NCBI GenBank assembly: GCA_052325425.1
Contig: JBKQUY010000102.1
Span: forward strand, 472 to 64,471
DNA: 64,000 nt
DNA from: Bacteroidia bacterium
GTDB taxonomy: Bacteria > Bacteroidota > Bacteroidia > JABEUT01
Direction of reading: 5' to 3'
Position numbers and translations under genes: made by a program. Numbering within the stretch: the stretch's first letter is position 1; every line of letters begins with the position of its first letter. Below the pieces are notes generated by a model. That model saw only the letters and a program-made list of their open reading frames with translations, was not told the DNA's origin and made no database searches. This document shows positions 1-10,830 of the stretch, in pieces.

Positions 1-1924
1 TATAGTTTATGGTTGAATCATGTATGGAGTCTATTGTCCAGAAATAGGTATTTGTGCCATAATTGCCACCTGTTAAAATGACATTCTTTCCGCATGTGAC
101 AATTGGATTGGTGTTTATGCCCAGGTTATTGGTTATAGTGGGCGCGGGCGGATTGGGTTGAATGATTACATATATACTGTCTTTGCTTTGCAGGCAGCCG
201 TCAACCGAAGTTTGCGTAACATAGTACCAGCCCGTTTTGGTAACACTTATGCCGCCTCCCGATGCTCCTGTTGACCACTTATATGTAAAATCGGGGCCAA
301 CCTGCGGGCATGTGTTTGAAATAGCTTCTATAGATCCTGATTGACAAAACTGAACCGTGTCGGGGCAGGTAGTATCAATGCATACTCCAACAACAGGCCG
401 GTTGCAGCCGCCCCCGCTGCGGGTGAAAAAATCATAAGGCTGCCTGTTTAAATCAATAGGCTCAGCAATAAAAATATCGCTGCCACCGGCAGTATTGAAT
501 GATTCGAAATCTCCATAGCTCGCATCGGCGCAATAAGCGGTATTGCAGGTGGCAGGACTATAATTATAGCCGATATAGCTTGGGTCGCTGGTAATTATCA
601 TATCCTGGTTAAAACTTCCGGCAGTATATATCCCTCCTCCGGCAGTTACGGAAATACTATAACCAAGGTTATCCTCATGGCCGCCAATTTGCCTGCTCCA
701 TTGCCATGCACCGTTTGTATTGCTGTACCCTGCCACAAAAATATCCCAGGTTCCAACCGAGTTAAATGTTCCCTGGCCATACTGGTCGGCATAGCTGTTA
801 AACCGGCATTCAAAGTTCCCGATAATATAAGCGTTTCCTGCTCCGTCAAGCGAAATGGCATTCGATGTTACTGAATTTGAGGAGCCGTCTGACACATCCC
901 ATAATAAGTTCCCGCTTGCATCATATTTCGCGACAAAAATCCGGTTGGCATAAATATTTGAAAGCGTAACCACCGGGTTAACAAAGAAACTCAGGATGCC
1001 AGTAAAATTCCCGGTTAAATAAATATTTGCGGGGGTATTGTTGTCAACCGCTATGCCATTGGCAATATTCAGGGTTCCTCCGCCCGCCATGGTAAACCAC
1101 TGTTCCTGCCCGGCGCTGTTATACTGAACCAGGAAAATTCCGTTAAACAGGTTACTATAATGTACATTATCAAATGTAATGGTATCGGTAAACTGCCCCG
1201 TTACATATACATTTCCCGAAGCATCGCAGCCCACCCCAAGCCCCCTGTCGGTATGCGGCCCTGAGCCCATCTGCGCCCACAAAAAATTACCGTTGCCGTC
1301 GAGTTTCGTGGTAAATATGTTGATATTGTTATTGTCGCTGGTAAGGTTAAATGCCCCAAACGAGGCAGTTCCGGCAAATTCCCCGGTAACCAATACATTG
1401 CCTCCGTTATCTACCGTTATGGCATTGCCTATATCAGCCATAGGGCCACCGGCGCTGACAGCCCATAAGGCATTACCATTAGGGTCATATTTGGCAATAA
1501 AAACATCCTGCAATCCGGCAGAAGTAATAGTATGGGTGCCGAAAGTAGCCGTGCCGTAAAAGTACCCTGTAACATAACTGTTGCCTGCGGCATCGGCTTT
1601 AATGGCCAGTCCCCTGCATGCACCGGAGCCTCCGGCATTTTCAGCCCATTGGAATACCCCGTTGGCATTGGTACAGGTTACAAAAATATCCGATGCCCCG
1701 GAGGCCGTCAGTGAAAATGTTCCAAATTTGGCGGTGCTTGAAAAATATCCTGTCGTATAGGTATTGCCGCTTCCGTCTGTCGAAATGCCGTAGGCTTCAT
1801 CGAGTGTAGGACCTCCTGCTCTCTGCATCCAATAACTTTGGCCGTAGGTGTGGTCTGATATGAATAATATCAAAACCAGGCAAAACCCTAATCGTAAACC
1901 AAAAGAATATTTTGAGAAAAACAT
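1..1924 (-). CDS. Secreted SBBP/beta-propeller repeat protein, probable T9SS substrate (runs off the left edge)
   Basis: Not in the ORF track (no stop in window). ATG at 1924 reads MFFSKYSFGLRLGFCLVLILFISDHTYGQSYWMQRAGGPTLDEAYGISTDGSGNTYTTGYF: signal peptide then SBBP-type repeats; same frame still open near base 1 (GTNTYFWTIDS). Confidence 0.85.
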   Translation of the reverse strand, partial: MFFSKYSFGLRLGFCLVLILFISDHTYGQSYWMQRAGGPTLDEAYGISTDGSGNTYTTGYFSSTAKFGTFSLTASGASDIFVTCTNANGVFQWAENAGGSGACRGLAIKADAAGNSYVTGYFYGTATFGTHTITSAGLQDVFIAKYDPNGNALWAVSAGGPMADIGNAITVDNGGNVLVTGEFAGTASFGAFNLTSDNNNINIFTTKLDGNGNFLWAQMGSGPHTDRGLGVGCDASGNVYVTGQFTDTITFDNVHYSNLFNGIFLVQYNSAGQEQWFTMAGGGTLNIANGIAVDNNTPANIYLTGNFTGILSFFVNPVVTLSNIYANRIFVAKYDASGNLLWDVSDGSSNSVTSNAISLDGAGNAYIIGNFECRFNSYADQYGQGTFNSVGTWDIFVAGYSNTNGAWQWSRQIGGHEDNLGYSISVTAGGGIYTAGSFNQDMIITSDPSYIGYNYSPATCNTAYCADASYGDFESFNTAGGSDIFIAEPIDLNRQPYDFFTRSGGGCNRPVVGVCIDTTCPDTVQFCQSGSIEAISNTCPQVGPDFTYKWSTGASGGGISVTKTGWYYVTQTSVDGCLQSKDSIYVIIQPNPPAPTITNNLGINTNPIVTCGKNVILTGGNYGTNTYFWTIDSIHDSTINY

Positions 1925-2201: not shown

Positions 2202-4100
2202 ATGAAAATTAAAATAATCACTTTAGCATTTTTTTTTACTGCATTACTTAGTAATACTTTTGCTCAAATAAATTTTGTTTGGGGTAGTTTTGGCGGAATT
2301 AATTTAGTATGTGAGGGTTGGGCCGTTACTACTGATAAAAACAGTAATATTTTCTTAACCGGGGAATGTGCAGGCGGTTTTTCATTTGTCTTTGGTGGAA
2401 ATTCCTTAAAATTAATTGGAGGTGGATGGAATGATTACTTAGTTAAATTAGATGCGAATGGTTCTTCAAAATGGGTTAGGGGAGCAAATTTAGTTGGAGC
2501 TAATTCAACATCTACAGGTATTGCTATAGCTACAGACAAAAACGGGGAAATATGTGAAACAGGAATTTTTTCTGGCCGCATAGAGTTTGGTACCAATAAA
2601 TTGGTATTTGATTCTTCTGGTGGAAGTACGAATTGTTATTTAGTAAAGTACGATTCTATGGGAAATGCTTTATGGGCAACATCTCCCATTGCCAGGGTAT
2701 CTTACATTGGTCCGAATTGGGTGTCGAATTGTGGATTGGCTGTTACCACTGATGAATATAATAATGTCTACTTGGCGGGTACATTTACTGATACTATTGT
2801 TTTTGGAAATATTAAGCTTATTGATGTAACAAATACAAATCAATGCGCCATGTTTTTAGTTAAATATGACCAAAATGGGAACGTACTATGGGCAAATTCT
2901 TATGGAATAAATTCATCTGCTTGGGATTACGAAGGACTTTCTTTAGCAGTTGATAGAGATGATCATATTTATTTTGCCGGAGGTTTTGATGGCCCCTCAA
3001 TTTCTTTTGGCCAAAAGGTATTAACATGTATTGGACGTGCTATTTTTTTGACAAAGTTTGATTTGAATGGTAATGTATTATGGGCAGAATCGGCAGGTGG
3101 CACTAACTTAGATTATGCCAATAAAGTTGTGATAGATAAGAGCAATAATGTATATATAGATGGAACTATTACAAGCCCCTTGGTTACATTTGGAACGCAA
3201 ACCCTTACATGCCCTTATGCCGGCAATGAGTTTTTTATTGCAAAATATGATACCGGAGGCAATGTGTTATGGGCAAAGGCCGCGGATAACCATTCCGTAG
3301 GTTATTCTGTTGCTGTAGATTCATGTAATGATGTATTTGCTTCAGGCGGATGCCCCGGGGTTATCTCGGTAGATTCATCTGTGTTTTCAGTTGGCAACGG
3401 AGCAACTGATCCGACTTTTGTTTTAAAATTTGATTATACAGGTGTTATTCTTGCCGGGGGTGTTATTAAAAGTGGGGGAGATGATAACAATGATATTGCA
3501 ACAGATAACCAAGGGAATGTTATTATGGGTGGAGATTTTCAAGGAACAATGGTTATAGGAAAGGACACAACATCTACTGCTCCAAACCTTGAAATGGCTG
3601 GCGTATTAAAATTTTCATTGGGCTTAAATTGTTGTATAGAGAATAAAGGGGAGAATGCATGTTGTAATACTACTTTATATGCAGGGCAGTCAACGGGAAT
3701 AGGCATAAGCCCGCTTAATGATTCAACTTCATATTTTTGGTGGCCATCACAGGGATTAAACTGCCAGACATGCTCATCAGTTGTAGTTACGCCAAGTGTA
3801 ACGACTACATATTATGTAACTACATTATCAGGTAAAGATAGTAACTGTGTAACTGATGCCGTTACAATAACTATTGAACCGCCCTGCAAAGATTTTGCTG
3901 TGCCGAATGTATTTACTCCTAATGGAGATGGACTGAATGATAAGTTTTTAATTAATGCTATAGGAATGAGTGACTATGCCATTGATATATATGACCGATG
4001 GGGTATAAAGGAATTTCATGCTGATACGCCTACTATAAGCTGGGATGGAACTGATTTGAGAGGCAACAAAGTCCCTTTAGGAGCCGTAGAAGGCTTATAG
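2202..4100 (+). CDS. SBBP-repeat secreted protein with gliding-motility/T9SS type-B CTD, C-terminally interrupted by an integrative element
   Basis: Signal peptide; repeated 'LVKYDxxGNVLWA' blades; CTD motif PNVFTPNGDGLND...IYDRWG...WDG ends abruptly in element-derived LGAVEGL*. Confidence 0.9.
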   Translation: MKIKIITLAFFFTALLSNTFAQINFVWGSFGGINLVCEGWAVTTDKNSNIFLTGECAGGFSFVFGGNSLKLIGGGWNDYLVKLDANGSSKWVRGANLVGANSTSTGIAIATDKNGEICETGIFSGRIEFGTNKLVFDSSGGSTNCYLVKYDSMGNALWATSPIARVSYIGPNWVSNCGLAVTTDEYNNVYLAGTFTDTIVFGNIKLIDVTNTNQCAMFLVKYDQNGNVLWANSYGINSSAWDYEGLSLAVDRDDHIYFAGGFDGPSISFGQKVLTCIGRAIFLTKFDLNGNVLWAESAGGTNLDYANKVVIDKSNNVYIDGTITSPLVTFGTQTLTCPYAGNEFFIAKYDTGGNVLWAKAADNHSVGYSVAVDSCNDVFASGGCPGVISVDSSVFSVGNGATDPTFVLKFDYTGVILAGGVIKSGGDDNNDIATDNQGNVIMGGDFQGTMVIGKDTTSTAPNLEMAGVLKFSLGLNCCIENKGENACCNTTLYAGQSTGIGISPLNDSTSYFWWPSQGLNCQTCSSVVVTPSVTTTYYVTTLSGKDSNCVTDAVTITIEPPCKDFAVPNVFTPNGDGLNDKFLINAIGMSDYAIDIYDRWGIKEFHADTPTISWDGTDLRGNKVPLGAVEGL

Positions 4101-4118
4101 GTAGCGGGTTTTCGGGTG

Positions 4119-4142
4119 CTTTGTATAAAAAACCTGTATAAA
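4119..4142 (+). repeat. Candidate integrase arm-type sites (TGTATAAA repeats), left end
   Basis: CTTTGTATAAAAAACCTGTATAAA; same motif three times at 8252-8286 near the right end. Confidence 0.55.
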
Positions 4143-4181
4143 GTGCGCTTCATAATGCTAAGATAGTAGTTTACTTAATAC

Positions 4182-4211
4182 AAAAAAAAGCCCCCTTATA
4201 ATTAAGGGGGC
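4182..4211 (-). terminator. Rho-independent terminator for the Xis/RHH transcript
   Basis: GCCCCCTT-ATAATT-AAGGGGGC hairpin with A8 on + (U-tract on -). Confidence 0.75.
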
Positions 4212-4233
4212 AAGGTACTGGGAAAATACAGCA

Positions 4234-4560
4234 TTAAGAGGCTTTCAAGTGCTTATTCTTTTTATACATAAGAAGTATATCGGGCAAATTTTCGAGGTCT
4301 TTCGTGGCTATATTAACGCCTGAATGTCCAATATACACAGGCTTTATATAACCTGCTCTTATCAATACTCTCAAGTGAGTAGCGGAGCAGCCTCTATAAC
4401 GGGCAGCTTGGTTTATTGGCATAGACAAAGGCTTTAGTACACTTGTTTTTACTTCGTAAAGTGTTTCTGCCTGTTGTTTACATAACTCATATAAAGCCTT
4501 GTTTAACCTGTCTATTTCAGAAAGCAGGGGCTGTATATCTTCTTTGGTTAGTATTTCCAT
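4234..4560 (-). CDS. Excisionase-like HTH DNA-binding protein
   Basis: MPINQAARYRGCSATHLRVLIRAGYIKP resembles HTH_17/Xis; likely start ATG 4560 (MEILTK) rather than 4614; element context. Confidence 0.65.
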   Translation of the reverse strand: MEILTKEDIQPLLSEIDRLNKALYELCKQQAETLYEVKTSVLKPLSMPINQAARYRGCSATHLRVLIRAGYIKPVYIGHSGVNIATKDLENLPDILLMYKKNKHLKAS

Positions 4561-4988
4561 GTGTCCTCCTCTTTTTTGAATTGTGAATAAGAGTGTTCTA
4601 CTACAACCTCCCATTTGTCCTCACCTATTTTCGTTACGCCTCTGACCTCATCTATACCTATTCTTATGGTGTCTATGTGGCATGGAAGACAGTCTCTACC
4701 CGTGAGAGCATAGTAAACGCTTTTAAGCTCTTTACGGTTAAAATGAAAAACTTGTTTACTGGGCGGTGGCAGGAAAATTTGTTTACTGTGTGTTACAGTG
4801 TCTTTCATGGGTATTGCCTCATGCGATACTTGATGATTTTCCTGTATTTCTTTACCTGCAAATTCATGGGCGGACAATCCTATTGCTTGTCCTTTCTCAT
4901 GTAGCGTATCAAATACGTCTGCTGGCAAGCGAAAAGTAATTGTCTTTGTTTGATTTGATTCGGGCTTTTCTGATTTTTCGGTTTTCAT
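4548..4988 (-). CDS. Ribbon-helix-helix-like DNA-binding protein
   Basis: N-terminal TKTITFRLPADVFDTLHEKGQAIGLSAHEF fits the RHH/CopG/MobC pattern; overlaps the Xis-like gene. Confidence 0.55.
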   Translation of the reverse strand: MKTEKSEKPESNQTKTITFRLPADVFDTLHEKGQAIGLSAHEFAGKEIQENHQVSHEAIPMKDTVTHSKQIFLPPPSKQVFHFNRKELKSVYYALTGRDCLPCHIDTIRIGIDEVRGVTKIGEDKWEVVVEHSYSQFKKEEDTWKY

Positions 4989-5330
4989 TTTATTAAGTTA
5001 TTAAATCTGTGTATTGCTAATGTTACACCCGTATTTAAGAGTGTTTCAAAAAGCAATGATTAATGATAATCTCTTATTTTTTAAAGAGAGTATCTTAATT
5101 AATGTTACACTCAAACTTGATTTGAGCGTATTCTTTAAACACAATAGAATAATTATTCTATTTATGTTTATTCGTAAATTTATTTGTGATACTTCTCTTT
5201 TTTTCATTTTTTATAAGAGATTGTATCTTATAAAGAAAGTATCTGACTATATAGTACACCCCTACAACTTGAGTGCCCGATAAAGCAAAATAGATTGTCT
5301 ATTTATGCCTGTTTACAAGTGTAAACACCG

Positions 5331-5398
5331 CAAAGATATACAAAATAATTTTGAAATAAGGTAAAAAAACGCAAAGTTTTTAGTTAATGCTATATTTG
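5331..5398. promoter_or_regulatory. Divergent Bacteroidota -7 promoter elements
   Basis: TATCTTTG on - (5331-5338) and TATATTTG on + (5391-5398) match TAnnTTTG. Confidence 0.6.
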
Positions 5399-5462
5399 CC
5401 CTACAAAATTAATGCGAATGAAATAGAACAAAGTAAACTAACATATTGGCGTTAGCTTTCTT

Positions 5463-5595
5463 GCTTTTGGAAACTTCCACAAATCCAACAATTCACAAGG
5501 ATAAGTTATACGCCCACGCAAAGCGTGGGCTTTATCTTGTCTGTGGATTAGGTGCGTGGAAGTACCTCAAAAGCGGTAGGGTAAATGTCCCACGC
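5463..5595 (+). ncRNA. Candidate structured RNA leader (long multi-stem hairpin) upstream of the lipoprotein gene
   Basis: Nested pairings GCTTTTG/CAAAAGC, CTTCCAC/GTGGAAG, AATCCA/TGGATT, ACAAGGATAA/TTATCTTGT, GCCCACGC-AAA-GCGTGGGC; second CCCACGC at 5589-5595. Confidence 0.55.
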
Positions 5596-5655
5596 TGATT
5601 TTATATAAACTAACCACCTGTTCGGGATGTTGGGGTAAACAAAAACCTTAACAAA

Positions 5656-6156
5656 ATGAAAAACAAAACAAAGTTCTTAACCGCAATTATGGCAGTAAGT
5701 ATTGCTGTAACATTCATGTCGTGTCAAAAAGGGGCAACAGGCCCAGCAGGTACTAATGGTACAAATGGAGTTGCTAACATTTCAAGCAATATCTATTCTA
5801 TTACTCCTGGTTCATGGAGTAATCCGGCAACAGGTGAGTATTTAGTGAAAGTAACCGATGCTGCAATTACAGATGCAGACAATGATGGTATTGAAGTATT
5901 TGTTTCTACTTCAACAGGGATATATTTAGGTTTACCTTCTAATAATCTTCTGGTAAGTGGCGACCAAATGGAATTTGCGTACCAAACTGGGTCAGCAAGT
6001 TTAATTTACCTTAATTCATCTGCACCTGCTTCTACCATTAATTTAAAAGTAGTGGTAATCCCACCTGCTGCAATGATAGCACACCCAAATACAAATTGGA
6101 ATGACTACAATCAGGTAAAAGCTATTATTGATGCTCAAAACATATCTAATAAATAG
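5656..6156 (+). CDS. Lipoprotein with short collagen-like Gly-X-Y stretch (element cargo)
   Basis: Signal II ending TFMSC; GATGPAGTNGTNG. Confidence 0.8.
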   Translation: MKNKTKFLTAIMAVSIAVTFMSCQKGATGPAGTNGTNGVANISSNIYSITPGSWSNPATGEYLVKVTDAAITDADNDGIEVFVSTSTGIYLGLPSNNLLVSGDQMEFAYQTGSASLIYLNSSAPASTINLKVVVIPPAAMIAHPNTNWNDYNQVKAIIDAQNISNK

Positions 6157-6189
6157 TTATTAAACGGAAAACATCTACATTGATGAAAA

Positions 6190-6216
6190 AAAAGGGGCGC
6201 AATTTGCGCCCCTTTT
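6190..6216. terminator. Bidirectional terminator palindrome, copy 1
   Basis: AAAAGGGGCGCAATTTGCGCCCCTTTT between convergent genes. Confidence 0.8.
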
Positions 6217-6243
6217 GATATAACTATAATAATTAGGGTCTTT

Positions 6244-6873
6244 TTATTGCCGTAATAATTGTTCCTTCCTTTGCCTGTCCGCTTGTAATTGCTGCAAAGC
6301 ATTATTTACTTCTTCCTGCTTTTTGGCGGGTAAGCGTCCAAAATGGAATTTTTGCACATTAATATATGCCAGACTATCTTTAGTTATTTGCTTATTAATG
6401 TTTTGTAAAGGAGAATCTCCCGCATTTGAGTTGGTAGATTGTTCAGGCTTCTTTTTAACAATATTTTCAACCCATTGTTTTGCTTTATCTACTTTGTTTA
6501 CAAGATTTTGCGCAATATTAGCTGCTACCGATTTACTTTCATCATCATATTTTTGCTGAACTGCTTGCTGGTTTGTAAATATTATAAAGCCGCAAATACC
6601 AATACCTATACGCTGGTCAATATTCTTAATATAAATATCCTGAAAAAAAGTACGGTCATCAATGCGATATAAATCATTTCCGAACCTATCAATAAAAAAA
6701 TCTGATACAGCTTGGGCGGCTGTTTTTGTTACATCTGAATTTTGGCTGCGTGTTATTTGTGCGTCTATTTTTTCTTTTATGCCATCAATACAGGCTTTTG
6801 GGGTAGGTTTAGTTACTACAAGTAAAATAGCTAATAGGCAAAGTATGCCTAAGAATATAAGTAACTTTTTCAT
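6244..6873 (-). CDS. Membrane-anchored/secreted hypothetical protein (DUF4359-like N-half), element cargo
   Basis: Hydrophobic N-terminus then VTKP...DRTFFQDIY...IGIGICGFIIF; family call from memory. Confidence 0.65.
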   Translation of the reverse strand: MKKLLIFLGILCLLAILLVVTKPTPKACIDGIKEKIDAQITRSQNSDVTKTAAQAVSDFFIDRFGNDLYRIDDRTFFQDIYIKNIDQRIGIGICGFIIFTNQQAVQQKYDDESKSVAANIAQNLVNKVDKAKQWVENIVKKKPEQSTNSNAGDSPLQNINKQITKDSLAYINVQKFHFGRLPAKKQEEVNNALQQLQADRQRKEQLLRQ

Positions 6874-6995
6874 GGTGGCAGTTTATTTAAAATTTAGTTA
6901 ATGCCTCAAACATAGCATTTTTCCAGTTTATATAACTTTTGCCCCAACTCTCTGAAAGCCTTTGTAACATCACTAAGCAAGTCTATAACTAAAGA

Positions 6996-7022
6996 AAAAG
7001 GGGTGCAATTTGCGCCCCTTTT
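6996..7022. terminator. Terminator palindrome, copy 2 (26/27 identical to 6190-6216)
   Basis: AAAAGGGGTGCAATTTGCGCCCCTTTT just downstream of the integrase stop. Confidence 0.8.
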
Positions 7023-7048
7023 TCTTAAAACAAATTACTGTTAACTAC

Positions 7049-8179
7049 CTATGCAACCCGCTTAACTTTTGTTTGCGTTATGCCCTGTAACGCTGTAAAT
7101 ACAGGCTTCATATCGTCAGGCTGAACCCCTATATATTGCATAGTCTGCATAGGGTTGGGAATACCCGACTTGCTGCAATGCCCCAATACTTTTGCAATGG
7201 TAACAATGGCAACCCCATTGCGGAATAAGTGAGTTGCAACGCTACGCCTGAAACAATGGCTTCGTATTTTCTTGTCAATCTCTGCTCTTTTTACCCATTT
7301 ATCCAGTATGTCATTGTGTCCTCTCCAGTCAAATGAGCCCTTTATTACTTTGCCCTTTCTTTCGCCTTTTATACTGTTTACAAGGTCGGCGGATAGTATT
7401 ATATCGTAAACCTTGTTACCTGTCTTTTCCTGAACCAATACAGGTATAATGTAATGGTCGCCCTGTTTCTCTATCATTTCCCAAGTCAAAGCCAGTATAT
7501 CGCTTATACGCTGCCCGCCTGTATAATATTGCAATTTGCTTATAACCTCTGTTTGATGGTCGGGGCAAGGGGTGTTAAACAGTATATTCGTTTCACTTTC
7601 AGTTAATGTTACACCGACTTTATAACTGGGTTGTATCTGAATACGCCTAATCCCCGAAAGGTCAATAGTTATAAGCCCCTGTTTTTTTGCCCGCCTCGTG
7701 TGCATCATAAATTTTCGGAATAGTTCGGCGGCATGGTTACTCCCTTTTTTCTTTGAATGAAGGTAGGTTTGAAAATTCACGCAGAAATCGAAGTCTATTT
7801 CGTCAAAATGTACTTTATCACGACCTGTAAACGTTTTTAATTTCTTAAAGATTAGCAGCATTTTTTGTCTGCTTCTCTCATTCTGAATTAAAGAGGCTTC
7901 ATATTCACCCCATCCTATAAATTCGTTGGGCTTGTAGGGCATTATATCCTGCCCTGCCTCTTTTTTAGCCTTTATTAAGGCATCCATAGCCTTTTTATAG
8001 TATGGGTCAGTCATAACCGCCTTAACATCCTTTTTATTGATTTTGGCGGGTGCTGTAAAGGGCAGTTTCACGTTCTTTAAAACTTTGCCCTTGCTTGTGT
8101 ACCTTAACCTGAAAGATACTTCACCTGTATAGGCTGAAACGTCGTCTATCAGTTGTACGCTTATTTTATCTGTTTTCAT
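7049..8179 (-). CDS. Site-specific tyrosine recombinase/integrase
   Basis: Catalytic residues: GQRISD (R), EKT (K), SHCFRR (HxxR), LGH, TMQY (Y); SAM-like 'FDEIDFDFCVNFQTYL' region. Confidence 0.95.
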   Translation of the reverse strand: MKTDKISVQLIDDVSAYTGEVSFRLRYTSKGKVLKNVKLPFTAPAKINKKDVKAVMTDPYYKKAMDALIKAKKEAGQDIMPYKPNEFIGWGEYEASLIQNERSRQKMLLIFKKLKTFTGRDKVHFDEIDFDFCVNFQTYLHSKKKGSNHAAELFRKFMMHTRRAKKQGLITIDLSGIRRIQIQPSYKVGVTLTESETNILFNTPCPDHQTEVISKLQYYTGGQRISDILALTWEMIEKQGDHYIIPVLVQEKTGNKVYDIILSADLVNSIKGERKGKVIKGSFDWRGHNDILDKWVKRAEIDKKIRSHCFRRSVATHLFRNGVAIVTIAKVLGHCSKSGIPNPMQTMQYIGVQPDDMKPVFTALQGITQTKVKRVA

Positions 8180-8409
8180 TGTTTATTGATTTTTTTTAGT
8201 AATTAATTACAGAGTTACGCCATAATAAATGGCTTCACAAGGTTTTTCATACTTTGTATAAACCTTGTACAAATAGCCCGTATAAATCAATCAGCGATAA
8301 GTAAGCGGGAATTATTTTAATACGTAAAACATCGGTGAAAGCCGCATCAATAGCGAAACGTAGAAAATAATAAGAAATATTAAAATACATTACGCCAAAA
8401 CCCTTGAAA

Positions 8410-8499
8410 GCCCCAGATGGAGTTTATTATTACATTATAAAATCTACTTGCTATAACAAAGCATACGATAAGCATGGCTTTGTCCAGGTTCTGCGATAA
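8410..8499 (+). pseudogene. Displaced 3' end (29 codons + stop) of the T9SS CTD gene starting at 2202
   Basis: Reads APDGVYYYIIKSTCYNKAYDKHGFVQVLR*, the canonical end of a type-B CTD (PDGVYYY...G.V.(V/L)LR). Confidence 0.9.
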
Positions 8500-8511
8500 T
8501 CTTTAAATTTT

Positions 8512-10830
8512 CTAAACCCTTATTCCAATTATTAACACATCATCAACCTGTTCTAAATTGCCTTTCCAATTGTCTAAAGTTTGTTCCAGATTTTGCTTTT
8601 GTTCTTGCATTGTCAACTTACAATTGTCCATTATCAATTGCTGAAGCTGCTTATATTTAAACTTCTTTTCCTTTGGCCCGCCAAACTGGTCGGCATAACC
8701 ATCTGTAAATAGATACAAAGTTCCGGCCTCCCTGCCCTCCAAAGGAGGTTTTAATGTAAAGGCATGAGTAGTGAATGGCTTTGGATTATCGGCTTTGCCT
8801 ATGGGTTGTTTATCGGCAGGTAATTCCTTCATTATTCCATCCTGTATATACCACAACGAATTAAATGCACCCGCCCATTGTATTTGAATCCCTCCTTCGG
8901 AGGGAGTTAGGGAGGTTAACGAAATATCCATCCCATCCTGCACATCGTTTTCGCTTTTCTCAAATGTTTCCAATACAAGTTCTCGCACTTTGTCCAATAT
9001 TTTTCCCGGTTCAGTTATCTTAAATTCTTTTACAGTTCTGTTTAATGCATTACTGCAAACTACACTAACCATTGCACCCGGTACACCGTGGCCGGTGCAA
9101 TCTGCTGCTGCAACAAAAATGGTGGACTCTGTCCGCTCCATCCAATAGAAATCTCCTGCGACAATATCTTTGGGTTTATACAAAACAAATGATTCAGGCA
9201 GATATTGCTCTATCATTTTTAAAGGGGGCAAAATAGCATCCTGCAAACGCTTGGCGTAGTTTATAGAGTCGAGAATATCTTTATTCTTTTCTTCTACTAT
9301 TTTTTTCTGCTCCTCCACTATCTTATTTTTTTCTTCAACCAATTCCTTTTGCTGTTCTACAAGAGTTTTTTGTTGTTCCACAACTGTCTTCTGTTTTTCA
9401 ATCAGGTTCTTTTGTCTGCGTGTAATACTCAATGAGCGGAATATAATCGCTACGAATATCAGAGCAAGAGTCAGGCCACCAAACGAAGCGTACATAATCA
9501 CTTCCTGTTTCCTGGCTGCAGCTTCGTGAATAACATTTCGCTTATCTTCCTCTGCTTTGGCAGAGTCGGCTTTCCTTTCAAAATCAAAAGTCATTTGGCT
9601 GCCCAGTATTTTTTTGTCTGTCTCCTTATTCTTCAGCGAATCCCGGTAAATGATATAGGTTTTGTAATCGCTTAATGCGGTTTTGTAATTGCCTGTAGCA
9701 CTGTCATAAATGGACCAATAATTATAGGCTCCCTTTATCAGTTCTTTTTCTCCAATACTTTTACTTAAGCTCATTGCGCTGTCAAGGTATTGTTTCGCTG
9801 CACGGTATTTTTTCATTTGAGTAAGAATGTTCCCAATGTTTCCATAGGCAAATCCCCTGCCGGTGTTATCTCCAATTTCCCGGCTCATCTGTAACCCCTG
9901 CAATTGGTTTTTCAGCGCCTCGGTATAATTGCCTGTTTTATAATAAGTACTCCCTATATTCCCATAAGCTATGTCCATACCCTGTTTATTTCCAATTTCC
10001 AGGTATATTCTCAAACCTTGCAATTGGTTTTTCAGCGCTTCGGGGTAATTGCCCATATCAAAATAAATGTTACCGGTGCTCATATAAGCCTCGCCCATTG
10101 ATAACTTATCTCCATTTTCCCGGGCTATTTTCAGGCTTTGCAATTGGTTTTTCAGCGCCTCGGTATAATTGCCCTGCTCATCGTAAATGTTCCCTATATT
10201 TCCGTATGCATTGCTCATACCCTTTTTATCTCCTATCTCACTCTCTATTTTCAAACCTTGCAACTGGTTTTTCAATGCTTCAGAGTAATTGCCCTGGGCT
10301 TCATAAATAAGCCCAAGGTTTCCGTAAGCATTGCTCATACCGAGTTTATTTTTAATTTCCTGAAATGAGTTCAAGCTTTGCAGGTAGTTTTTCTGGGCTT
10401 CAGGGTAATTGCCCTGCCTCCAATAAACATTCCCAATGTTTAAATACGCATTGCCCATACCCTTTTTATCTCTTATTTCCTGAAATATTTTCAAACCCTG
10501 CAACTGGTTTTTCAGGGCTTCAGTATAATTGCCCTGGTCTTCATAAATATTTCCTTTGTTCAGGTAAGCTTTGCCCATACCTTGTTTATAATTTATTTTT
10601 TGAGCCAGAGCCAAAGAAATTTGAGCTAATGAGTCGCTTTGGGAGTAATCGGAGAGCAGATATAGTTGCCGGCTCAAATTGTTGAGAGTGTTTACGCGGT
10701 TAGTATCTTCTTTATCAGTTTCAAGAAGGTTTCGAACTGAATCAATCTCATGGGTTTGGGCAAAAGAATTACCTGCCATTAGTACATAGGCAGATATTAC
10801 AAGGAATACGTATTTTATTTTCTGTTTCAG
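8512..10830 (-). CDS. TPR-repeat sensor / TM / PP2C (SpoIIE/RsbU-type) phosphatase
   Basis: 40-aa TPR repeats, TM helix, coiled coil, KPKDIVAGDFYW, DCTGHGVPGA, DGMD, TDGYADQFGG, QVDD; ATG at 10779 but the signal peptide extends in frame to CTG 10830. Confidence 0.9.
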   Translation of the reverse strand: MKQKIKYVFLVISAYVLMAGNSFAQTHEIDSVRNLLETDKEDTNRVNTLNNLSRQLYLLSDYSQSDSLAQISLALAQKINYKQGMGKAYLNKGNIYEDQGNYTEALKNQLQGLKIFQEIRDKKGMGNAYLNIGNVYWRQGNYPEAQKNYLQSLNSFQEIKNKLGMSNAYGNLGLIYEAQGNYSEALKNQLQGLKIESEIGDKKGMSNAYGNIGNIYDEQGNYTEALKNQLQSLKIARENGDKLSMGEAYMSTGNIYFDMGNYPEALKNQLQGLRIYLEIGNKQGMDIAYGNIGSTYYKTGNYTEALKNQLQGLQMSREIGDNTGRGFAYGNIGNILTQMKKYRAAKQYLDSAMSLSKSIGEKELIKGAYNYWSIYDSATGNYKTALSDYKTYIIYRDSLKNKETDKKILGSQMTFDFERKADSAKAEEDKRNVIHEAAARKQEVIMYASFGGLTLALIFVAIIFRSLSITRRQKNLIEKQKTVVEQQKTLVEQQKELVEEKNKIVEEQKKIVEEKNKDILDSINYAKRLQDAILPPLKMIEQYLPESFVLYKPKDIVAGDFYWMERTESTIFVAAADCTGHGVPGAMVSVVCSNALNRTVKEFKITEPGKILDKVRELVLETFEKSENDVQDGMDISLTSLTPSEGGIQIQWAGAFNSLWYIQDGIMKELPADKQPIGKADNPKPFTTHAFTLKPPLEGREAGTLYLFTDGYADQFGGPKEKKFKYKQLQQLIMDNCKLTMQEQKQNLEQTLDNWKGNLEQVDDVLIIGIRV
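9895..10560. repeat. ~120-bp-period tandem DNA repeats encoding TPR units
   Basis: CAA(T/C)TGGTTTTTCAG...TAATTGCCC recurs at 9901, 10021, 10141, 10261, 10381 (diverged), 10501. Confidence 0.85.

Follow-up and report, generated by a model that had tools for sequence, protein, structure and literature searches.

Integration at a secondary site (pseudo-attB integration) is a concept known from lambda and SGI1, and tyrosine recombinases cut 6-8 bp apart. Outside the Bacteroidota, site-specific elements are described that interrupt a gene and restore it by precise excision, such as skin in sigK, the comK prophage of Listeria and the Sa3int phages in hlb, each with one site conserved across strains and conditional excision according to the available parts of PMC7397523, PMC6597384 and PMC5025042. 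Within the Bacteroidota, the available part of PMC2034462 reports that IntDOT, the integrase of CTnDOT, depends on 2 bp of left-hand homology and tolerates a right-hand stretch of 5 bp that is not homologous. For type IX secretion systems (T9SS), the available part of PMC12618676 reports that secretion in Flavobacterium johnsoniae was abolished when a single one of the five conserved motifs, whichever it was, within the final 100 residues of a type-B C-terminal domain (CTD) was mutated. Here, we analysed a 64,000-nucleotide stretch of DNA (hereafter the window; contig JBKQUY010000102.1 of assembly GCA_052325425.1) from a soil Bacteroidota, in which an integrative element encoding a tyrosine integrase splits the type-B CTD of an SBBP protein. 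The split is probably a secondary-site insertion by an element whose attachment core matches a palindrome resembling the repetitive extragenic palindromic (REP) sequences.

A type-B sorting domain in two pieces

The product of the SBBP open reading frame (ORF) is 632 amino acids (aa) long, has a signal peptide as well as beta-propeller repeats of the SBBP type, and ends in ...WDGTDLRGNKVPLGAVEGL*. The features of the split gene and of the element boundaries are as follows.

2202..4100, + strand: truncated SBBP beta-propeller gene; its last 9 residues (VPLGAVEGL) and stop codon are supplied by the element
3897..4070, + strand: N-terminal two thirds of the T9SS type-B CTD, CHU_C positions 2 to ~61; last codon K623
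4076..8414, no strand: integrative element, 4339 bp core to core, ~32-42% GC
4068..4083, no strand: attL core AAAG TCCC TTTA GGAG; exchange point within or beside the CC(C) at 4073-4075
8407..8422, no strand: attR core AAAG CCCC AGAT GGAG; homology to other elements stops at 8414
8407..8499, + strand: displaced CTD end, K plus 29 residues and a stop, holding the most conserved C-terminal blocks, DGxYYY and GxVxLxR

Two profiles recognize the beginning of the domain in the SBBP protein. Pfam CHU_C positions 2-64 of 86 match residues 566-627 (E 2.9e-13, 50.2 bits, cut-off 27), and TIGR04131 positions 2-61 of 85 match residues 566-625 (36.6 bits, cut-off 35). A test for a complete domain failed, as the CHU_C match stops at position 64 of 86 and positions 61-86 are found 4.3 kb downstream. 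There, the + strand at 8407-8496 has 30 codons for KAPDGVYYYIIKSTCYNKAYDKHGFVQVLR and then a stop. This remnant matches CHU_C positions 61-86 of 86 with an E-value of 0.0018 and 18.8 bits, a score that the shortness of the piece keeps under the cut-off of 27 bits, and positions 58-86 of a hidden Markov model (HMM) built from the 45 full CTDs of the same genome with an E-value of 1.4e-5. When both pieces were added to the alignment of these 45 CTDs, they tiled exactly, without a gap and with only the common K as overlap. Neither piece of the gene contains stops or frameshifts. An earlier note on this DNA had placed the break in the SBBP gene and an intact CTD end 4339 bp downstream; its coordinates, distance (8407 - 4068 = 4339) and core 16-mers, AAAGTCCCTTTAGGAG at 4068-4083 and AAAGCCCCAGATGGAG at 8407-8422, were all correct.

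The limits of the element are given by other copies of it. Homology to these copies begins at window positions 4068-4073 and ends at 8414. A second element in the same genome is 90% identical in DNA over window positions 6950-8414 and its match stops there, while two left-end copies, C29:14943 and C68:47592, begin to match at 4073 and 4068, respectively; a contig of run X3 departs from the window exactly at 4068 into the flank of C68:47592. Since the homology limits of the other copies fall at these points, the element spans from the core at 4068-4083 to that at 8407-8422. Its GC content is indistinguishable from that of its flanks.

Separately assembled contigs cross attL (X1, 3000-4919; X2, 3672-4294) and attR (X1, 8232-8699; X3, 8190-8447) without any difference from the window. 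The structure is thus not a mis-join, because independent contigs of three soil runs bridge attL or attR. All of these soil runs are from a single study, and the source of the window may be among them; they show a real join, not a widespread one.

The 632-aa protein lacks the last 29 residues of the sorting domain and is probably not exported. This prediction follows from the loss of the DGxYYY and GxVxLxR blocks, since the available part of PMC12618676 finds all five type-B motifs to be required; the lost blocks were equated with its motifs D and E by position only. The expectation of the earlier note that export needs an intact CTD agrees with that source in its available part, on which losing the last CTD blocks should stop export. 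Excision would restore a 652-aa ORF reading K-V/A-P-D-G at the joint, or K-V-P-L-G if the right-hand overlap is kept from attL. The earlier note was right that the excision products are in frame, which carries no evidential weight because conservative recombination never changes length.

The insertion affects one member of a large paralogous set of about 46 type-B cargo genes. In the genome, 49 CHU_C matches exceed the cut-off, and 16 SBBP matches are present. A PorP/SprF-like shuttle gene directly 3' of a type-B cargo gene is common and not obligatory. Ten PorP_SprF genes are present in the genome and none on the contig of the window (C102), and the SBBP gene has no adjoining PorP/SprF gene, which would make it an "orphan" substrate in the sense used in the available part of PMC12618676. 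No SBBP orthologue, split or whole, was found in 40 relatives (best 38% identity), and no uninterrupted allele in a collection of 5.8 billion proteins (next best 50% identity, 490 aa); the uninterrupted allele for which the earlier note had proposed a comparison of related genomes was found in neither set. On one side, the gene is flanked by another SBBP-repeat protein gene at 2-1924 (-), divergent from it and running off the window. On the other, a gene at 8512-10779 (-) for a TPR protein with a SpoIIE/PP2C phosphatase domain is convergent on the CTD remnant.

Related copies and a probable REP-like target

The element family is confined almost only to this soil Bacteroidota genus. Its integrase was found in 2 of 41 relatives and in 2 of 401 genomes of the class (E ≤ 1e-45), and further integrase loci comprise one in genome contigs (L031, the same place as in genome G005) and five in metagenome contigs. 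Because the family is so narrow, the sample of insertion sites is small. In the genome of the window, the second element lies at C68:20328-25000, with an integrase of 89% aa identity, beside an ALGX-like ORF; this ORF has no Met in its first 60 residues. Three further copies are decayed: the left-end copy at C29:14943-15143 is on a contig without an integrase match, the one at C68:47592-49956 retains only ~50 bp of integrase-gene homology (C68:49906-49956), and C77:63857-64144 is an integrase fragment with stops. A second split CTD was sought at C77, beside a PorP/SprF gene and the integrase fragment, and no CHU_C signal was found there.

The insertion sites of the related copies do not repeat that of the window. 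We searched six-frame translations of the flanks with the CHU_C HMM; the window flanks matched (E 1.2e-18 and 1.4e-5) and the other 10 flanks gave E ≥ 0.94. Neighbours of the related copies include SCO1/SenC, ALGX-like and H+-PPase genes, and the G005 site is intergenic. A complete type-A CTD gene ends 47 bp before the C29 copy. The element taken to span L033 and L036 is inserted inside an SprB-repeat gene with a type-A CTD, far from that CTD. A doubly occupied repeat cluster adjoins an H+-pyrophosphatase gene at L034:700-940; in it, a pair of right ends of the family point towards one another across 45 bp, and both abut a REP-like copy.

The junctions have a regular sequence. We lined up 5 attL and 8 attR junctions. 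All five left junctions read flank-AAA(G/C)-YYCC-TTTA-GGRG-element, and five of the eight right junctions (G005, L032, L034 twice and L035) read element-AAA(G/C)-YCCC-TTTA-GGGG-(T/G)TTGGG, i.e. TTTAGGGG(T/G)TTGGG as in free REP-like copies. The non-canonical right junctions are those of C68 (TTTAGGGGTTTTAC), the window (AGAT GGAG TTTATT) and L033 (ATAA GGGT ATTG). The attP core of the family, AAAGCCCC TTTA GGRG, matches a 23-nt REP-like palindrome, AAAGCCCCTTTAGGGGTTTGGGG. The G005 element sits in the right-hand copy of a repeat pair, has both junctions in the repeat and is flanked by a 14-bp direct repeat, CCCTTTAGGGGTTT.

The palindrome is abundant in the genus. With ≤1 mismatch allowed, a 19-mer pattern, AAASYCCCTTTAGGGGTTT, was found in 13 of the other 17 genus genomes, in up to 49 copies (27+22 in G002, 23+26 in G014, 20+24 in G006 and 12+17 in G005), and its reversed control gave 0 everywhere. 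REP-like copies in the genus number roughly 340 altogether. The 23-mer itself has 18-45 copies in four of five sampled genomes of the genus, and 1-2 copies in 2 of 195 genomes of other genera. The copies often form inverted pairs 36-200 bp apart (GCCCCAAACCCCTAAAGGGGCTTT ... AAAGCCCCTTTAGGGGTTTGGGGC), so that by analogy the repeat may be called REP/REPIN-like. A palindrome family of 23-24 nt was seen among genomes G001-G017 (e.g. L037, L044, L048, L051, L053).

The repeat is absent from the genome of the window and from four other genomes of the genus. In the former, the 23-mer has 0 copies, the one copy of the 19-mer pattern is the junction of the C68 element itself, and CCCCTTTAGGGG is found at two element ends only. 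The CTD site shares 11 of 16 bases with the attP core.

Some REP-like copies lie in sorting domains of another type. At L043:1501-1519, L050:1501-1519 and L052:1501-1519 (G012, G010 and G001), copies are in frame inside a type-A sorting domain, where they encode PQTPKG(A/T)L on the opposite strand. The three were among 18 copies sampled, and the Por_Secre_tail matches have E-values between 1e-11 and 5e-11. The three long host ORFs are unrelated: besides the sorting domain, the first matches no family, the second is an NHL/SBBP propeller and the third a GH28 enzyme.

Three attL/attR pairs bear on strand exchange, and in each the partners differ on both sides of 2-3 bp of CC(C) identity. The pairs are AAAG-T-CCC-TTTA versus AAAG-C-CCC-AGAT in the window, AAAGCCCC versus AAACTCCC in G005, and AAACTTCC-TTTA-GGGG versus AAACTCCC-ATAA-GGGT in L036/L033. 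Core positions up to 6 go with their own left arm, and positions 9 onward with their own right arm. Because the cuts of a tyrosine recombinase are 6-8 bp apart but the identity covers only 2-3 bp, the overlap would have included mismatches on either the left or the right side of CC; the two are indistinguishable from two or three informative pairs, and we infer the cleavage positions. Such mismatches would then be fixed by replication or repair. The pattern fits a heterology tolerance of the IntDOT type, and a heterologous overlap is plausible on these alignments. The earlier note had proposed such an overlap as in CTnDOT; the three pairs do need mismatch tolerance, and its placement depends on cleavage sites deduced from the junctions. 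The 8-bp mismatched spacer of that note was overstated, as mismatches are present at five of the eight positions and CCC is common to both cores.

The element carries the following genes and candidate sites.

7049..8179, - strand: tyrosine integrase (Int), 376 aa; PF00589 E 4.4e-15, SAM_5 core-binding domain PF13102 E 1.8e-11
4234..4560, - strand: excisionase-like protein, 108 aa from MEIL (ORF open to 4614); long N-terminal helix and winged helix
4548..4988, - strand: conserved 146-aa protein, ribbon-helix-helix-like by eye only
5656..6156, + strand: cargo, predicted lipoprotein, 166 aa; absent from related elements
6244..6873, - strand: cargo, 209 aa, membrane-anchored at the N-terminus; missing from related elements
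4122..4142, + strand: candidate left-arm Int sites, two direct TGTATAAA copies, with a third, inverted, at 4261-4268; kept in relatives
8255..8286, + strand: candidate right-arm Int sites, three direct YGTAYAAA; kept in relatives

The integrase is 88-90% identical to copies elsewhere. Its HCFRRS (H-x-x-R) and LGH (L-G-H) motifs align to HVLRHT and LGH of XerA, and visual inspection gave the first R (in GGQRISD) and the Y (in TMQYIG). Its first 100 residues match no Pfam arm-binding domain. The two Pfam domains, together with the boundaries drawn from other copies, bear out the earlier note in that a tyrosine-integrase element splits the CTD.

The 108-aa protein has weak sequence matches (HTH_17, E 0.0037, below the cut-off; PDB 4j2n, E 0.057). 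Its model has a pLDDT of 85.6 from a 3-sequence alignment. The best folds in Foldseek were Pukovnik Xis of a mycobacteriophage and the RdfS excisionase, all with E-values >0.001; against Pukovnik Xis, the probability was 1.00 and the target TM 0.74-0.76, with an rmsd of 1.8-2.3 Å over ~50 residues. On the basis of this predicted fold, the protein may be the excisionase (Xis) of the element. The 146-aa protein has no Pfam, PHROG, NCBIfam or PDB match and a poor model (pLDDT 47), and the 166-aa and 209-aa cargo proteins have no family match.

The G005 and L036 elements share the integrase with the window, and their Xis-like and 146-aa proteins are 87-97% and 57-63% identical to those of the window. 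The cargo varies, and the G005 and L036 elements carry proteins with type-A sorting domains. Such secreted cargo is encoded at L031:9560-10390 (-) and L036:746-2008 (-), with Por_Secre_tail E-values of 3e-13 and 3e-11. The YGTAYAAA motif is found at the element ends at 4122, 4135, 4261(-), 8255, 8266 and 8279, i.e. 6 of the 14 in the window; over the whole window it is not enriched (14 found, 14.4 expected), and the end clustering alone is notable.

A 31-nt GC-rich hairpin has 94% identical copies at 6186-6216 and 6992-7022, on either side of the 209-aa cargo gene. The hairpin, which the genome also has on contigs C68, C109, C77 and C29, is likely to be either a common terminator or some other small repeat. 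At the left end, an outward-reading start (MKR.LYR.FIQ...KPAT.KP...PKG) lies at window 4016-4153 (-) and gives a 45-aa antisense ORF. At L036:3423-5399 (+), the corresponding start runs in frame into the 3' part of the SprB-repeat gene that is interrupted there, and the resulting ORF of 658 aa has its type-A CTD intact. This outward start may be due to chance, or it may be an outward promoter and start.

Explanations of the split gene

Together, our results make it probable that the split gene reflects an ordinary, possibly still excisable, insertion of a mobile element at a secondary site in a type-B CTD. In the mechanism that we propose, the family, with a conserved core (tyrosine integrase, excisionase-like protein and small conserved protein) and variable cargo, would carry an attP that mimics the REP-like palindrome. 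In a genome without a free REP-like copy, the integrase would have used a look-alike, AAAG(Y)CCC AGAT GGAGTTT, whose position at the G-N-K-(A/V)-P-D-G codons in a type-B CTD would be a matter of chance. Strand exchange would have occurred at or beside the common CC, with IntDOT-like mismatch tolerance on one side. The resulting 632-aa protein would enter the periplasm without its sorting-domain end and stay unexported, and Int with the Xis-like protein could excise the element to give back the 652-aa gene (623 + 29 codons).

Several points weigh against this explanation. The site consensus AAASYCCCN4GGRGTTT occurs at two sites in the 4.5-Mb genome, both occupied, a count that is partly circular, as the consensus was derived partly from those two occupied sites. 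Only about eight related sets of junctions are available, and L033 and L036 were taken as one element from a split integrase and a matching repeat gene. The use of a look-alike because canonical sites were absent is deduced from the copy counts. Finally, the undamaged state of both the remnant and the upstream ORF also fits a reversible state that is maintained.

The rival that survives best is a fixed, immobile insertion with the SBBP gene becoming a pseudogene, which we consider unlikely. The three decayed family copies in the genome (C29, C68:47592 and C77) speak for it, as does the detection of the integrated form only. However, in the window element both recombination genes (Int and the Xis-like gene) and both kinds of site (core and candidate arm sites) are intact and conserved, and neither gene piece has begun to decay by stops or frameshifts.

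It is tempting to speculate that insertion and excision by Int and Xis at REP-like copies or look-alikes could toggle the export of T9SS cargo in populations, with the window as the OFF state. The idea arises because REP-like attB copies sit in type-A CTDs, look-alikes sit in type-B CTDs and mismatched overlaps may be tolerated; we give it slight credence.

Another explanation, proposed in the earlier note, is a regulated DNA-rearrangement switch, in which excision timed by the host or the element would allow SBBP export only under some conditions, as with skin in sigK or the comK prophage. An intact set of Int, Xis-like gene and sites, two undamaged gene pieces and the precise excision that they would permit are compatible with it, and such systems exist in other phyla (PMC7397523, PMC6597384, PMC5025042, in their available parts). 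However, the site is a one-off, with none of 10 other flanks in a CHU_C domain, and the target is one of ~46 paralogues without an orthologue above 50% identity in the proteins searched. Judged by its variable cargo and decayed copies, the family is a mobile one and not a domesticated remnant; the same insertion was not seen across strains or relatives, where related elements occupy other sites. No joint of an empty site or a circle was found in the contigs of runs X1-X4, at a depth of 5-9 and with contigs that drop rare forms, and the sole other joint in them, 8703 to 9083, is unrelated. That the contigs of three runs hold only the integrated form is a weak argument at this depth. We consider the switch unsupported and very improbable.

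More improbable still is that the coding sequence of the type-B CTD is the regular multi-copy attB of the family, as the earlier note had suggested. The insertion does lie at the most conserved CTD motif, in a genome with 49 CHU_C domains above the cut-off. However, the other 45 type-B CTDs fit the site consensus at no more than 11 of 15 positions at the aligned codons, no other junction lies in a CHU_C domain, and the att core equals the REP-like repeat, which appears to be the multi-copy target and is unrelated to the type-B K-x-P-D-G codons. That note had looked to integrase homologues inserted at the CTD K-x-P-D-G codons and had named their insertion at unrelated sites as the outcome that would speak against its reading; all those found are at unrelated sites. 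An assembly artefact, i.e. a chimeric join in a metagenome bin, has virtually no chance, because contigs of X1, X2 and X3 bridge attL or attR without differences and the CTD pieces tile exactly, even though the genome is a 121-contig assembly.

Comparison with known systems

The window offers a clear case of a site-specific element that disrupts a gene at a secondary site, and through it the Bacteroidota mobilome gains an uncharacterised, narrowly distributed family. Of more interest than the gene disruption is a REP-like attB that attP would mimic. If the regular target is a genus-specific REP-like palindrome, as it appears to be, a tyrosine integrase would have dozens of places to insert in each genome, and off-target insertions would be accounted for where the repeat is missing. 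The three natural junction pairs allow heterology-tolerant recombination to be tested in a system other than CTnDOT. Excision, if shown to be frequent or regulated, would make this the first case of a T9SS sorting signal controlled by DNA rearrangement. A literature search for integrase interruption or excision of a T9SS CTD returned one unrelated review only, and among the best 10 matches of a search joining REP with tyrosine recombinase attB none held REP; absence is not proven by either.

In comparison with CTnDOT and IntDOT, the element belongs to the same phylum and likewise has a tyrosine recombinase with SAM_5, clustered candidate arm sites and an accessory Xis-like protein. Its att sites have in common 2-3 bp (CC) next to a possibly differing stretch, and IntDOT combines 2 bp of homology with 5 bp of heterology (PMC2034462, available part). 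However, the window element is 4.3 kb long, carries no transfer genes and is not a conjugative transposon, and SAM_5 is the sequence feature seen to be shared with IntDOT-type integrases.

With skin in sigK, the comK prophage and the Sa3int phages in hlb, the element shares the interruption of a gene that precise excision would restore. Those elements keep to a conserved site, whereas the window presents a single instance at a secondary site. Pseudo-attB integration has in common with it the partial identity to attP (11/16), a missing preferred site and gene disruption as a by-product; what differs is the preferred site, here a REP-like palindrome in many copies and not a single tRNA or gene end. 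The insertion sequences that target REP or REPIN home in the same way to a short repeated extragenic palindrome, often in inverted pairs. Those known so far are transposases, whereas here a tyrosine integrase with attP mimicry and an Xis-like protein would do the same.

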